From contig CAVTRN010000002.1 in the NCBI GenBank assembly GCA_963737155.1, positions 2,368,001 through 2,432,000 of the forward strand: 64,000 nt of DNA, given 5' to 3'. The notes beneath the pieces were generated by a model, which saw only the letters and a program-made list of their open reading frames with translations, had not been told where the DNA came from and searched no databases. This DNA comes from Nitrospirota bacterium. Its GTDB lineage: Bacteria; Nitrospirota; UBA9217. Both the position numbers and the translations under genes were made by a program. Positions 41,539 to 43,817 of this stretch are shown here, one piece after another (position 1 is the stretch's first letter; each line of letters starts with the position of its first letter).

Positions 41539-42777
41539 CTATTTGCCGTCTGCTATCCTTAATCGTCTGATTCTCTCTGGAACAGGAGGGTGCGAGTAGT
41601 AGAATTTTGCATAGAATGGATGAGGGTGGAGATTGGAAAGGTTCTCGCTCGAAAGTTTAATCAACGCGGACGCCAAGGCTTCGGGTTGGCCGGTCAAATC
41701 GGACGCGAACCTGTCTGCCTCGTTTTCATTCCTGCGTGATATGAAACTGAACAGTGGCGTAAGCGGAAACATAACCAGGGAACCGATAAAACCGGTAACA
41801 ACAACCCGCGCATAGAATGATGCTGCGGATAAATGAACCAGTTGCGGCAACCCATTCCAGGAAACGAGATGAAAGCCCAGAAAGAGACCGCAAAATGCCA
41901 GGGCTTCAGTCAAGACGATGCTCTTCAGCACATGTCTTTTTTTCCAGTGACCAACCTCATGAGCGAGTACCGCAAGGATTTCGTCTTGCGACATCTGTTC
42001 AATAAGCGTATCAAAAAGGACGATGCGTTTTACTTTACCGATGCCGGTAAAGTAAGCATTTGAATGACGGCTCCTGCGTGAGGCATCAACCTGAAAAACG
42101 CTACTGACCTTGAGACCTGCCCGTTCCATGAGCTTGCGAACTTTTTCCTCCAGACCTTCGGCTTTAACCGGCCCAAATTTGAAAAAAAGCGGCTCGATCA
42201 CATAAGGAGCGAGGTACATAATGAAAATACCGAAGACAAGGAAAAATGCCCAGACCCAGAGCCACCACCAATGAGGGCTGGCACTCACGATTGCCAATGC
42301 GACACCGACAACAATGCATCCTAAAACCGAGGAAAGCAGAATCGTTTTAATGAAATCGGTGAGCCACAAACGGAAGGTCATGGTATTGAAACCGTATTTG
42401 TTTTCAATTTTGAAGTTTTTGTAGAGGCTGAAGGGTATATCTAGAAACGTCTCAGCATAGAGCAAGAATAAAAAGAAAAAAAGACCTTCTATGATCAAAG
42501 AACCAGAAAGGGATGATATCCAGCGGTCATAAATTCCGAGGAAACCCCCAAAAAGAAAAAAGAACATTATGACGTTCCCGAATAGAGACTCTACAATACC
42601 TGCCCTGCTGTTTTCCACAGTATAAGTCGTTATTTTCCGCAAGCGCTCGGGGTCAATAACGTCCGAAAATTCGGGCGGTATGGACTGACCATGTGCTTTC
42701 AGATAGGCAAGATTTAATGAAAGAAGCCAGTAGCGAAATGCGAGAATGACGACATAAAAAATAATAAGGGCAAGCAT
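41539..42777 (-). CDS. M48 (Ste24-like) membrane zinc metalloprotease
   Basis: Multiple TM helices, NAYFTG, LFDTL, AHEVGH, ENEAD, YSHPP..RI. Confidence 0.94.
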   Translation of the reverse strand: MLALIIFYVVILAFRYWLLSLNLAYLKAHGQSIPPEFSDVIDPERLRKITTYTVENSRAGIVESLFGNVIMFFFLFGGFLGIYDRWISSLSGSLIIEGLFFFLFLLYAETFLDIPFSLYKNFKIENKYGFNTMTFRLWLTDFIKTILLSSVLGCIVVGVALAIVSASPHWWWLWVWAFFLVFGIFIMYLAPYVIEPLFFKFGPVKAEGLEEKVRKLMERAGLKVSSVFQVDASRRSRHSNAYFTGIGKVKRIVLFDTLIEQMSQDEILAVLAHEVGHWKKRHVLKSIVLTEALAFCGLFLGFHLVSWNGLPQLVHLSAASFYARVVVTGFIGSLVMFPLTPLFSFISRRNENEADRFASDLTGQPEALASALIKLSSENLSNLHPHPFYAKFYYSHPPVPERIRRLRIADGK

Positions 42778-42869
42778 GGGCTCATCATACCGGTAAACGA
42801 TTACGGGGTCAAGAAGTACTGTGTTTATTTCGGATGGTGAACGGTGAGCTTATAAAAGGGGTAATAGTG

Positions 42870-42930
42870 AAAAAGGCGTCTCGAATATCGTGGACAAATT
42901 TTTGTCTCGTAGCTGTATCGAGACGCCTTT
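42870..42930 (-). terminator. Long hairpin with U-tract closing the candidate ncRNA
   Basis: 13-bp perfect stem AAAGGCGTCTCGA / TCGAGACGCCTTT with an inner GACAAA/TTTGTC stem, ending in U5 on the minus strand. Confidence 0.75.
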
Positions 42931-42932
42931 AT

Positions 42933-43101
42933 GACTGTACTGTCAGTTCTTTGGTGTTTATCCTGATGTTCGTACGAACGCCAACCATCGATTATCTCGT
43001 GCTGTTGATCTGTGACTGCGGCTAAATCAACGCTGGGGGGGAAGAAGTTGCCGCAGCAGTCTTGTTCCTGAATTCGATGGTATGTAACCAACAGTACAGT
43101 C
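42933..43101 (-). ncRNA. Candidate stand-alone structured non-coding RNA (~169 nt), family not recognised
   Basis: 16-bp closing stem with two G-U pairs on the minus strand, inner ACCAUCGA/UCGAUGGU stem, possible pseudoknot, own promoter and terminator. Confidence 0.7.
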
Positions 43102-43108
43102 TTATTTA

Positions 43109-43136
43109 AGCTTAGCAGTTAATAGCAACCCGTCAA
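43109..43136 (-). promoter_or_regulatory. Sigma70-type promoter of the candidate ncRNA
   Basis: TTGACG-N16-TAAGCT with TG extension (TGCTAAGCT). Predicted start site ~43102 coincides with the 5' end of the closing stem. Confidence 0.65.
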
Positions 43137-43172
43137 TACGACAAAAGTTGCATTTTATGGAGTCGCATACGC

Positions 43173-43817
43173 CTAGGAATGCGACAGCAGGGCGATGGCT
43201 TTTGTCCTACTTTTAACATTCAGCTTCCTGTAAACACGGTACAGATGAGTCTTGACCGTTCTCTCACTGATAGCGTTGCTGTTCGCGATTTCCCTATTAG
43301 AAGCTCCCTGCAATACCATGGTCAGCACTTCCATTTCCCTGTTTGTAAGCGGGGTCAGGCCTGGAATCTGGGCTTGGACCGTTTCCGGAAGAAGCATGGG
43401 TTTGGATATGGCTTTTTCCAGAATTCTTCGCTCCGCCCAGATCTCACCGCTCTGAACTGCATGGAGAGCCTTGATCATGGTCACCGGAGTATCTGTCGTT
43501 TTGATGTACCCTCGTATCCCGCCCTTTATATCCGTAATGAGGTGCTCATCTGAAGTTGTTTTGCTGAGAAGATACATTACGCGCGTTTGAGGGGATTTTG
43601 TTTGTATTGACCGGATAAATCGCGACAGCGTATGCCCTTTCAGAATGTCTGGGTCTAAAATCAATAAATCAGGCGTCATAGAAAGTTGTTTAATCGCCGA
43701 TTCCCGCGAGGAAACTGTTGAAACTACTTCAATATCCGTTTCTTTATTAAACGCTGACAAAACAGCCTGCATTTCGGCCTGGTCATTTTCTGCTATCATA
43801 ATACGAATAGGCAACAC
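43173..43817 (-). CDS. NarL/LuxR-family response regulator
   Basis: Receiver domain (IAEND, LILD, GYIK) and LuxR HTH LTNREMEVL..SNREIA..ISERTVKTHL. Confidence 0.92.
   Translation of the reverse strand: MLPIRIMIAENDQAEMQAVLSAFNKETDIEVVSTVSSRESAIKQLSMTPDLLILDPDILKGHTLSRFIRSIQTKSPQTRVMYLLSKTTSDEHLITDIKGGIRGYIKTTDTPVTMIKALHAVQSGEIWAERRILEKAISKPMLLPETVQAQIPGLTPLTNREMEVLTMVLQGASNREIANSNAISERTVKTHLYRVYRKLNVKSRTKAIALLSHS

Follow-up and report, generated by a model that had tools for sequence, protein, structure and literature searches.

A 64,000-nucleotide (nt) stretch of the genome of a Nitrospirota bacterium (lineage UBA9217; contig CAVTRN010000002.1, positions 2,368,001 to 2,432,000), referred to here as the window and numbered from its first letter, carries a real, structured, stand-alone gene for a small non-coding RNA (sRNA) that was previously uncatalogued and constitutes a new family. 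The gene lies on the minus strand, between the genes of a LuxR-family regulator and an M48 protease. As expected of an independent sRNA gene, it has a conserved sigma-70-type promoter and an intrinsic terminator of its own, which together delimit the predicted transcript. An earlier, sequence-only reading of this DNA had proposed such an RNA, and every sequence element that it listed was found in place when the minus strand of 42600-43400 was read. As far as sampled, the family is confined to one class-level Nitrospirota lineage, and by linkage the RNA and the LuxR-family gene form a fixed module.

The RNA and its signals comprise the following features.

42870..43102, minus strand: whole predicted sRNA transcript, ~233 nt, structured core plus terminator; supported by its fold, its single copy and covariance-model matches
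Within the transcript, minus strand: sRNA core domain of ~170 nt, closed by the 16-base-pair (bp) P1 stem; supported by the covarying stem
43086..43101, minus strand: P1 closing stem, 5' arm GACUGUACUGUUGGUU, partner at 42933-42948; supported by covariation
42933..42948, minus strand: P1 closing stem, 3' arm AACUGACAGUACAGUC, completing 16 bp that include two G-U pairs
43074..43081, minus strand: P2, 5' arm ACCAUCGA, partner at 42984-42991; part of a longer P2/P3 rod in most other species
42984..42991, minus strand: P2, 3' arm UCGAUGGU, partner of ACCAUCGA
43017..43055, minus strand: P4 hairpin, UGCGGC (43055-43050) paired with GCCGCA (43022-43017) around the C-rich loop
43035..43041, minus strand: C7 run within the loop ACUUCUUCCCCCCCAG, proposed seed for G-rich RNA
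42997..43004, minus strand: conserved motif CAGCACGA (CAnCAnGA) in a predicted internal loop, its positions invariant or nearly so in the alignments
42968..42979, minus strand: small side hairpin GUUCGUACGAAC of the predicted fold, on the 3' side between P2 and P1
42870..42930, minus strand: intrinsic terminator, GGCGUCUCGA (42927-42918) paired with UCGAGACGCC (42884-42875), a variable inner hairpin, then U5 (42874-42870)
43109..43136, minus strand: sRNA promoter, -35 TTGACG (43136-43131), 16-nt spacer, extended -10 of TGC (43117-43115) and TAAGCT (43114-43109), predicted start at ~43102
43144..43156, minus strand: conserved upstream promoter motif AAAATGCAACTTT, at about -55 to -43, a candidate UP-element-like sequence or regulator binding site

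Structure Conserved Through Compensatory Change

The 233-nt transcript folds at a predicted -79.3 kcal/mol (z = -7.56), a stability reached by none of 200 shuffled sequences. The plus strand is also stable (z = -6.18), because the reverse complement of any structured RNA folds well; the minus strand was preferred on the strength of its promoter, terminator and G-U pairs, the two within P1 suiting a minus-strand RNA only.

Comparison among relatives supports this fold. Aligned with MAFFT and without fitting to any structure, 35 homologues have 84.2% of cells in P1 and P4 paired vs. 25-48% in slid controls, two-sided changes occur in 15 of their 22 pairs, and the covariation score of the two stems was reached by 0/500 shuffles. 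Thirteen of the changed pairs fall among the 16 of P1, bearing out the closing stem that the sequence-only reading had drawn between 43101-43086 and 42948-42933. Taken alone on this alignment, P1 has 85.0% of its cells paired and P4 82.1%, the latter with two-sided changes in two of six pairs (88.4% paired on a model-fitted alignment). The model-fitted alignment as a whole is concordant, with 82.2% of cells paired and two-sided changes in 24 of 30 pairs, and a column-wise covariation scan of it recovered P1 and P4 only.

The P2/P3 segments are too variable in length to be aligned by column, and a comparison of same-species with cross-species pairing was therefore used for them instead. The 5' and 3' segments of one species pair at a mean of -16.7 kcal/mol, vs. 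-11.3 kcal/mol across mismatched species, and none of 5000 permutations gave a mean as low; the rod is therefore conserved through compensating change, and the inner stem ACCAUCGA/UCGAUGGU named by the sequence-only reading is present in this genome. Individual folds share a common plan consisting of P1, the rod, a GCGGC/GCCGC hairpin and a short ACUU/AAGU extension, with a C-run left in the apical loop. Where the side hairpin GUUCGUACGAAC sits in this genome, other species have a different hairpin, AGAUG/CAUCU (read from the folds by eye, with no formal count).

The C-run of the apical loop is predicted to be exposed, in agreement with the earlier description of an accessible C-rich loop. The C-run is in the range of 6-8 cytosines, reaches C6 or longer in 30 of 35 homologues, and has a mean predicted unpaired probability of 0.81, compared with 0.40 for the whole RNA; among the 33 homologues with a run of C4 or more, it exceeds the mean of its own RNA in 32. 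Across six members of the genus in the first alignment, 14 loop bases, ACTTCTTCCCCCCC, are invariant while the closing stem has changed on both sides. In the most divergent homologues, as read by eye from the alignment, a ACCCUCUU-type sequence replaces C7 and is still complementary to a purine-rich Shine-Dalgarno sequence.

Two interleaved helices had also been proposed within the core, forming an H-type pseudoknot or a two-state switch. Both can be drawn in this sequence, and one of them, the UGCGGC/GCCGCA hairpin, is conserved as P4. The other, GUUGAUUU/AGAUCAAC, has 44.4% of cells paired in 28 homologues, a value equaled or bettered by slid controls and matched by 123 of 500 shuffles, in a region where the alignment is imperfect. 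The pseudoknot and the switch are not supported, since this second helix is present here and not conserved in homologues.

Promoter and Terminator

Conservation extends to the signals that would make the RNA a transcription unit of its own. The -35 element reads ATTGAC in all 26 homologous loci compared, and in most of them an extended -10 of the TGnTA type lies at a constant interval from where the closing stem begins (read by eye, with no count). Transcription is predicted to start at the very first base of P1. Further upstream, most of the 26 loci share AAAT-R-N-R-ACTT(T/A) at a fixed distance from the -35 element, with few departures (e.g., L030 and L034; G, C and L numbers are our handles for genomes, contigs and loci). 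In the 4.84-megabase (Mb) genome, this motif with its fixed spacing to ATTGAC occurs once, at the sRNA promoter itself. The promoter predicted by the sequence-only reading, TTGACG-N16-TGC-TAAGCT, is thus present and has a conserved -35 element, although a consensus scan left it unflagged, a point weighed below.

Downstream, the long hairpin and U5 that had been described directly after the core proved general, a terminator stem and U-run being present in 27/27 loci examined. The sequence of the terminator stem, AAGGCGUCUCGAU...AUCGGGACGCCUU, is itself conserved across genera, which is unusual, and 94.3% of its cells are paired vs. 31-52% in slid controls. Its changes are mostly U-A to U-G to C-G steps, in which the U-G pairs would be A-C mismatches on the opposite strand. 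A simple terminator scan missed this terminator because its loop exceeds the 3-8 nt limit of the scan.

Relation to Catalogued RNAs, Repeats and Coding Sequence

Rfam 15 gave no match at gathering scores on either strand of the whole 64-kilobase window, and hence no tRNA, riboswitch or other catalogued RNA. At E values up to 10, the interval 42700-43300 returned only two chance-level microRNA matches, both on the terminator hairpin, and 19 homologous loci returned zero matches, confirming the suggestion of an unrecognized RNA. The 6S RNA family (RF00013) is ruled out, having matched neither the window at its gathering score nor 42700-43300 at E up to 10. The genome's own 6S RNA lies elsewhere (G000 C2:1131951-1132132, 97.6 bits), as does its signal recognition particle (SRP) RNA (74.6 bits), in keeping with the earlier judgment that the element is neither. 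Likewise, 6C, sX13, SRP RNA, transfer-messenger RNA, RNase P RNA and the riboswitch families were each without a match at gathering score in the window.

A dispersed repeat, whether a miniature inverted-repeat transposable element (MITE) or a repetitive extragenic palindrome (REP), is ruled out by copy number. The sequence-only reading had named dispersed copies as a sign of a MITE; the genome holds one full-length copy, the other eight blastn matches being 15-22 nt long with E above 1, and the covariance model gives one hit per genome, with two in G002. A coding role is ruled out as well, since the only sizeable open reading frame (ORF; 88 amino acids (aa), 42825-43091) is not kept in the 12 relatives examined.

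Searches of the literature on small or noncoding RNA in Nitrospirota or Nitrospirae, supplements excluded, did not turn up an account of this RNA. Annotated sRNAs are very scarce in Nitrospirota, a table in a 2022 review listing three distinct ones for the phylum Nitrospirae (PMC9029176), and most assemblies of the lineage studied here are fragmented. The present alignment could found a new Rfam family and end the annotation of the spurious 88-aa ORF.

Linkage to a LuxR-Family Regulator

On the minus strand the genes run in the order Maf, LuxR-family regulator, RNA, M48 protease and histidyl-tRNA synthetase, and the immediate neighbors of the RNA are the following.

43173..43817, minus strand: orphan LuxR/NarL-family regulator gene, 214 aa, with a GerE helix-turn-helix and a weak, probably degenerate receiver domain
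42784..42812, minus strand: the M48 gene's own promoter, TTGACC-17-TATGAT, ending 6 nt ahead of the ATG
41539..42777, minus strand: M48 (Ste24/HtpX-like) zinc protease gene, Pfam Peptidase_M48_N and Peptidase_M48; a neighbor outside the RNA unit

The sequence-only reading had placed the RNA downstream of a LuxR-family gene, a link that holds widely. A single clear regulator orthologue (51-100% identity) is present in 49 of 64 genomes of the family, and the RNA adjoins it in 37 of those 49. The regulator gene stands upstream of the RNA in 27/27 loci with upstream sequence (26 full-length and one partial match), ending ~75 nt (up to ~210 nt) ahead of it; at the 28th locus the contig starts inside the RNA, and this is also the sole RNA hit among the 15 genomes lacking a regulator match. 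No RNA was found in the examined flanks of the other 12 regulator-bearing genomes, some of which keep remnants.

Natural losses of the RNA can be seen at L084 (G007) and, within genus g29, at L086, L089, L090 and L093. In G007 the terminator hairpin alone remains behind the regulator gene, while the four g29 genomes retain short remnants without the closing stem, for example ATTGACA and a CCCCCC tract in L090.

In Pfam, the regulator scores 75 bits against GerE but, with 27.8 bits, falls short of the 30.2 cut-off of Response_reg. Among 15 orthologues, the C-terminal DNA-binding part with its helix-turn-helix is almost invariant. The presumed phospho-acceptor, which follows a hydrophobic strand and was assigned by eye with no structure used, is Asn in 11 and Asp in four of the 15, and the usual acidic pair DD, likewise assigned by eye, reads (E/D)N in most. 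No kinase gene adjoins the regulator. If these position assignments hold, the protein looks like a pseudo-receiver without kinase input.

Distribution Across the Nitrospirota

Homologues were detected by blastn in five of 14 other species of the genus. A covariance model built from six sequences (R1) found the RNA in 27 of the 64 genomes of the family, and a second model (R2), built from 28 matches of the R1 stage, in 31 of 64 genomes and 12 of 19 genera; family, order and class comprise the same 64 genomes in the taxonomy used. In a phylum sample of 151 genomes, only two of the 123 outside the family matched, at ~21 bits and E of ~2e-3 per genome, and we take these two weak matches outside the class to be chance.

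Examination of the downstream flanks of the regulator gene in 20 genomes missed by R1 extended the family further. One of these, G021, had already matched R2 weakly, and that match was confirmed. With search filters off, the RNA was recovered beside the regulator gene in G052, G018 and G017. When the flanks were read and folded, divergent versions were found in G020, G060, G053 and G024; these keep the promoter, a closing stem of the GGCGACGCUGU/ACAGCG..GCC type, a C-rich tract and the terminator, with a clear C7 in G020 only. Synteny thus adds seven genomes to the 31 found by the covariance model.

A pattern search with GCGGC-gap-ACTTCTTCCCCCC-gap-GCCGC over the whole genome collection returned 33 loci. 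Ten of them (nine full-length, one partial) are strong model matches, all titled Nitrospirota or Nitrospirae, and on this basis we use the phylum name. The other 23 share the loop piece only (eight hits in seven loci, E 0.014-0.79) or have no model match at E up to 1, and were treated as unrelated to the RNA family.

C-Rich Loop and Candidate Targets

Complements of the loop were sought throughout the genome, and among sites at start codons the best was UUGGGGGGGAACAUGAAGUUG, with a predicted pairing energy of -33.9 kcal/mol, at the gene of a 337-aa membrane-anchored multihaem c-type cytochrome; a gene for a c7-type cytochrome follows it. The suggestion that the C-rich loop pairs with Shine-Dalgarno sequences is plausible and has some comparative support at this gene. 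The GGGGGGG directly before its ATG is kept in 5/5 genus relatives (6/6 species with the reference) while the flanking leader diverges. In control genes with a G7 or G8 ribosome-binding site, G6 or more is kept in 0/11 orthologues (0/1 for aldehyde dehydrogenase, 0/5 for phosphoglycerate kinase and 0/5 for a Rho_N-like protein). This support weakens outside the genus, as detailed below.

The cytochrome gene is divergent from genes for a Rieske protein, cytochrome b and another multihaem cytochrome, which together form a compact electron-transfer cluster (L078, G000 C2:2476500-2482500).

A second strong complementary site (G000 C2:954115; L077, ~2590-2640), covering 14 of 15 loop bases at -34 kcal/mol, is intergenic between convergent genes, and its opposite strand resembles the sRNA loop itself. 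It had no blastn match in the five genus relatives searched, a search that shows little, and is probably chance.

With respect to protein factors, Hfq genes are present, the canonical one at C2:1084359-1084544. Two adjacent Hfq-domain matches (60.6 and 55.8 bits) at G000 C2:1675227-1675630 (L129), making three in all, may represent a tandem or duplicated Hfq-like gene.

Function of the RNA

Because pairing through C-rich loops is an established mechanism for 6C and sX13, we favor, with moderate confidence, a stand-alone trans-acting sRNA of the C-rich-loop type that has G-rich ribosome-binding sites as partners and the cytochrome messenger RNA (mRNA) as its leading candidate target. The unpaired poly-C loop would pair in trans with G-rich Shine-Dalgarno regions and, as in 6C and sX13, block translation or alter mRNA stability. 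The first such target would be the mRNA of the membrane-anchored multihaem cytochrome c, with GGGGGGG directly before its start codon, and the LuxR-family protein would probably control the sRNA promoter via the conserved upstream motif. Should the cytochrome target prove true, the RNA would act as a switch that controls respiratory electron transfer post-transcriptionally in these bacteria. The locus offers testable candidates for all three roles: the LuxR-family protein as regulator, the poly-C loop as seed and the multihaem cytochrome by the Rieske/cytochrome b cluster as target.

Several observations weigh against this assignment. The RNA gene is known here from sequence alone, and a consensus promoter scan passed over its promoter because the -10 element matches at only three of six positions, so that conservation carries the case for the promoter. 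For regulation by the LuxR-family protein, the grounds are adjacency and a single conserved motif that is only weakly palindromic. As for the target, ~40 genes have a run of G6 or more before a plausible start, those with G7 or more are without a common function, and the purine-rich complement of the loop biases target prediction toward ribosome-binding sites. The cytochrome site is weaker outside the genus, a comparison in which several start codons were placed by alignment only: it reads G4-G6 in the RNA-bearing genomes G041, G069, G019 and G077, no orthologue of the cytochrome was found in RNA-bearing G073, and RNA-less G007 has G6 there, other RNA-less genomes having G2-G5. Finally, the RNA is far larger and more closed than typical seed-type sRNAs, and its closing stem, CAnCAnGA loop and sequence-conserved terminator stem fit a protein-binding RNA equally well.

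A protein-binding or sequestering RNA, in which the closed domain, CAnCAnGA, the poly-C loop and the terminator stem are surfaces for the LuxR-family regulator, Hfq or a poly-C binder, is a less likely though plausible explanation, since the closing stem and the conservation of the loop and terminator stem exceed the needs of a seed plus terminator. It would also suit the strict linkage to a regulator apparently without a phosphorylation site, and three Hfq-domain genes in the genome. However, domains of the LuxR/GerE type bind DNA, the RNA resembles none of the 6S, Y RNA, SRP RNA and CsrB-type families of Rfam, and the G7 conservation at the candidate target suits base pairing better. Less likely than binding in general is a specific form of it, a dedicated RNA-protein pair in which the regulator, freed from phosphorylation control, senses or is titrated by an RNA from its own 3' flank, the binding surface of which would be the internal loop, the poly-C loop or the terminator stem. 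This pairing, which we regard as speculative, is compatible with the strict linkage, with the degenerate look of the receiver and with an RNA whose conservation and closure exceed what a seed requires; if true, it would amount to a novel mode of control for a transcription factor of the response-regulator type and to a new class of structured RNA in bacteria. We give a slightly better, though still low, chance to the element being mainly part of the 3' untranslated region of the LuxR-family mRNA, with a cis role in stability, processing or autoregulation and the free RNA as a by-product. The RNA is always co-oriented with and directly downstream of the regulator gene, G007 lost the core and kept the terminator hairpin in place, and no terminator was seen between the LuxR stop (43173) and the RNA (the scan listed none, but it also missed the known one), so that LuxR transcripts should read into the RNA. 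The intervening complete promoter, however, is better conserved than its surroundings (ATTGAC in 26/26, extended -10, upstream motif) and its predicted start falls on the first base of P1, and no complement of the C-run was noticed in the LuxR message, although without a formal search. The cis and trans roles are compatible with each other.

Two further readings have lost nearly all their ground. A cis-regulatory leader of the M48 gene, whether riboswitch or attenuator, was suggested by the position of the RNA, which in most loci precedes M48 and is co-oriented with it, and by a layout of structured domain followed by terminator hairpin that resembles a transcriptional riboswitch. Yet the M48 gene is preceded by a promoter of its own that ends 6 nt short of the ATG, as the sequence-only reading had supposed and as a promoter scan flagged, and TTGAC-N17-TATCAT/TATGAT sites lie just ahead of the M48 start in genomes without the RNA as well; the RNA is therefore not an M48 leader. 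In the downstream sequence available, an M48 match is absent in five of 28 loci (four of the 27 with full-length RNA, plus the partial L032), and at least nine genomes without the RNA still have the M48 and LuxR genes side by side. The RNA tracks the LuxR gene, not the M48 gene, and no alternative anti-terminator pairing was noticed, although without a formal search; we consider the leader largely refuted and very improbable. The idea of an RNA that titrates CsrA/RsmA under a GacA-like regulator came from the two CAGGA motifs of the window sequence and from the adjoining NarL/LuxR-family gene. Both motifs are present, but the first is deleted in the two closest relatives (G011 and G003) and GGA is kept at the place of the second in three of 27 aligned homologues. 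CsrA (Pfam PF02599) was not found in this genome, which is scored 100% complete, by a search that found it in three control genomes. The analogy with GacA is a loose one, in which the family of the neighbor holds and the Asn at the presumed phospho-acceptor of 11/15 orthologues speaks against it. With neither CsrA nor a conserved GGA, this idea is refuted and retains practically no probability.

Comparison With Known Systems

The family is new, whereas its mode of action, on the reading that we favor, is probably of a known kind. One close parallel is the 6C sRNA (B11) of Actinobacteria, whose C-rich apical loops are reported to bind mRNA targets directly at G-rich motifs at translation starts, runs of G-C pairs between single-stranded regions being said to suffice for binding without a chaperone (PMC6486639). 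Both are structured sRNAs with a C-rich apical loop, the pairing being predicted here. The two differ in that 6C has two C-run loops while this RNA has one on a 170-nt domain with a 16-bp stem, and further in phylum, in the lack of an Rfam 6C match here and in the fixed place of this RNA beside a LuxR-family gene. Similarly, sX13 of Xanthomonas is described as repressing through its C-rich loops mRNAs with G-rich motifs near the translation start (PMC3771888). G-rich ribosome-binding sites occur in a minority of genes there, as they do here (the ~40 genes noted above), whereas sX13 has three stem-loops with 4C/5C motifs and this RNA a single C6-C8 loop borne by a long rod. The two resemble each other neither in sequence nor by covariance model.

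Resemblance to 6S RNA lies in size (~170-180 nt), in a long stem closing the 5' and 3' ends and in a strong-looking promoter; a branch hairpin and poly-C loop take the place of the central bubble of 6S.

Genes for sRNAs beside the gene of a dedicated regulator are known from OxyR-OxyS, GcvA-GcvB, SgrR-SgrS and LuxO-Qrr1. The present locus resembles these pairs in its conserved neighbors and in the conserved motif upstream of the sRNA promoter, unique in the genome. Unlike them, it is arranged in tandem rather than divergently, so that the regulator transcript probably reads into the sRNA, and its regulator is of the LuxR/NarL type with an apparently non-phosphorylatable receiver.

Additional Observations

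A second, diverged regulator-RNA-M48 module lies on another contig of the genus member G002 (L041, C24:17594-17764). This assembly is scored at 6% contamination, and the module may represent a second strain rather than a duplication.

Among the loci returned by the loop pattern, ten contigs titled Methanoregula or Methanoregulaceae (L045, L047, L048, L049, L055, L058, L064, L068, L069 and L072) carry the ACTTCTTCCCCCC pattern within an identical 47-nt span, which the Planctomycetota contig L062 shares; all of them lack a match to the RNA model at E up to 1. In that archaeal genus, the span could represent a conserved element, either coding or RNA.

The M48 promoter, ending 6 nt before the ATG in a layout that recurs in relatives, suggests that the protease gene is transcribed into an mRNA with no or almost no leader.

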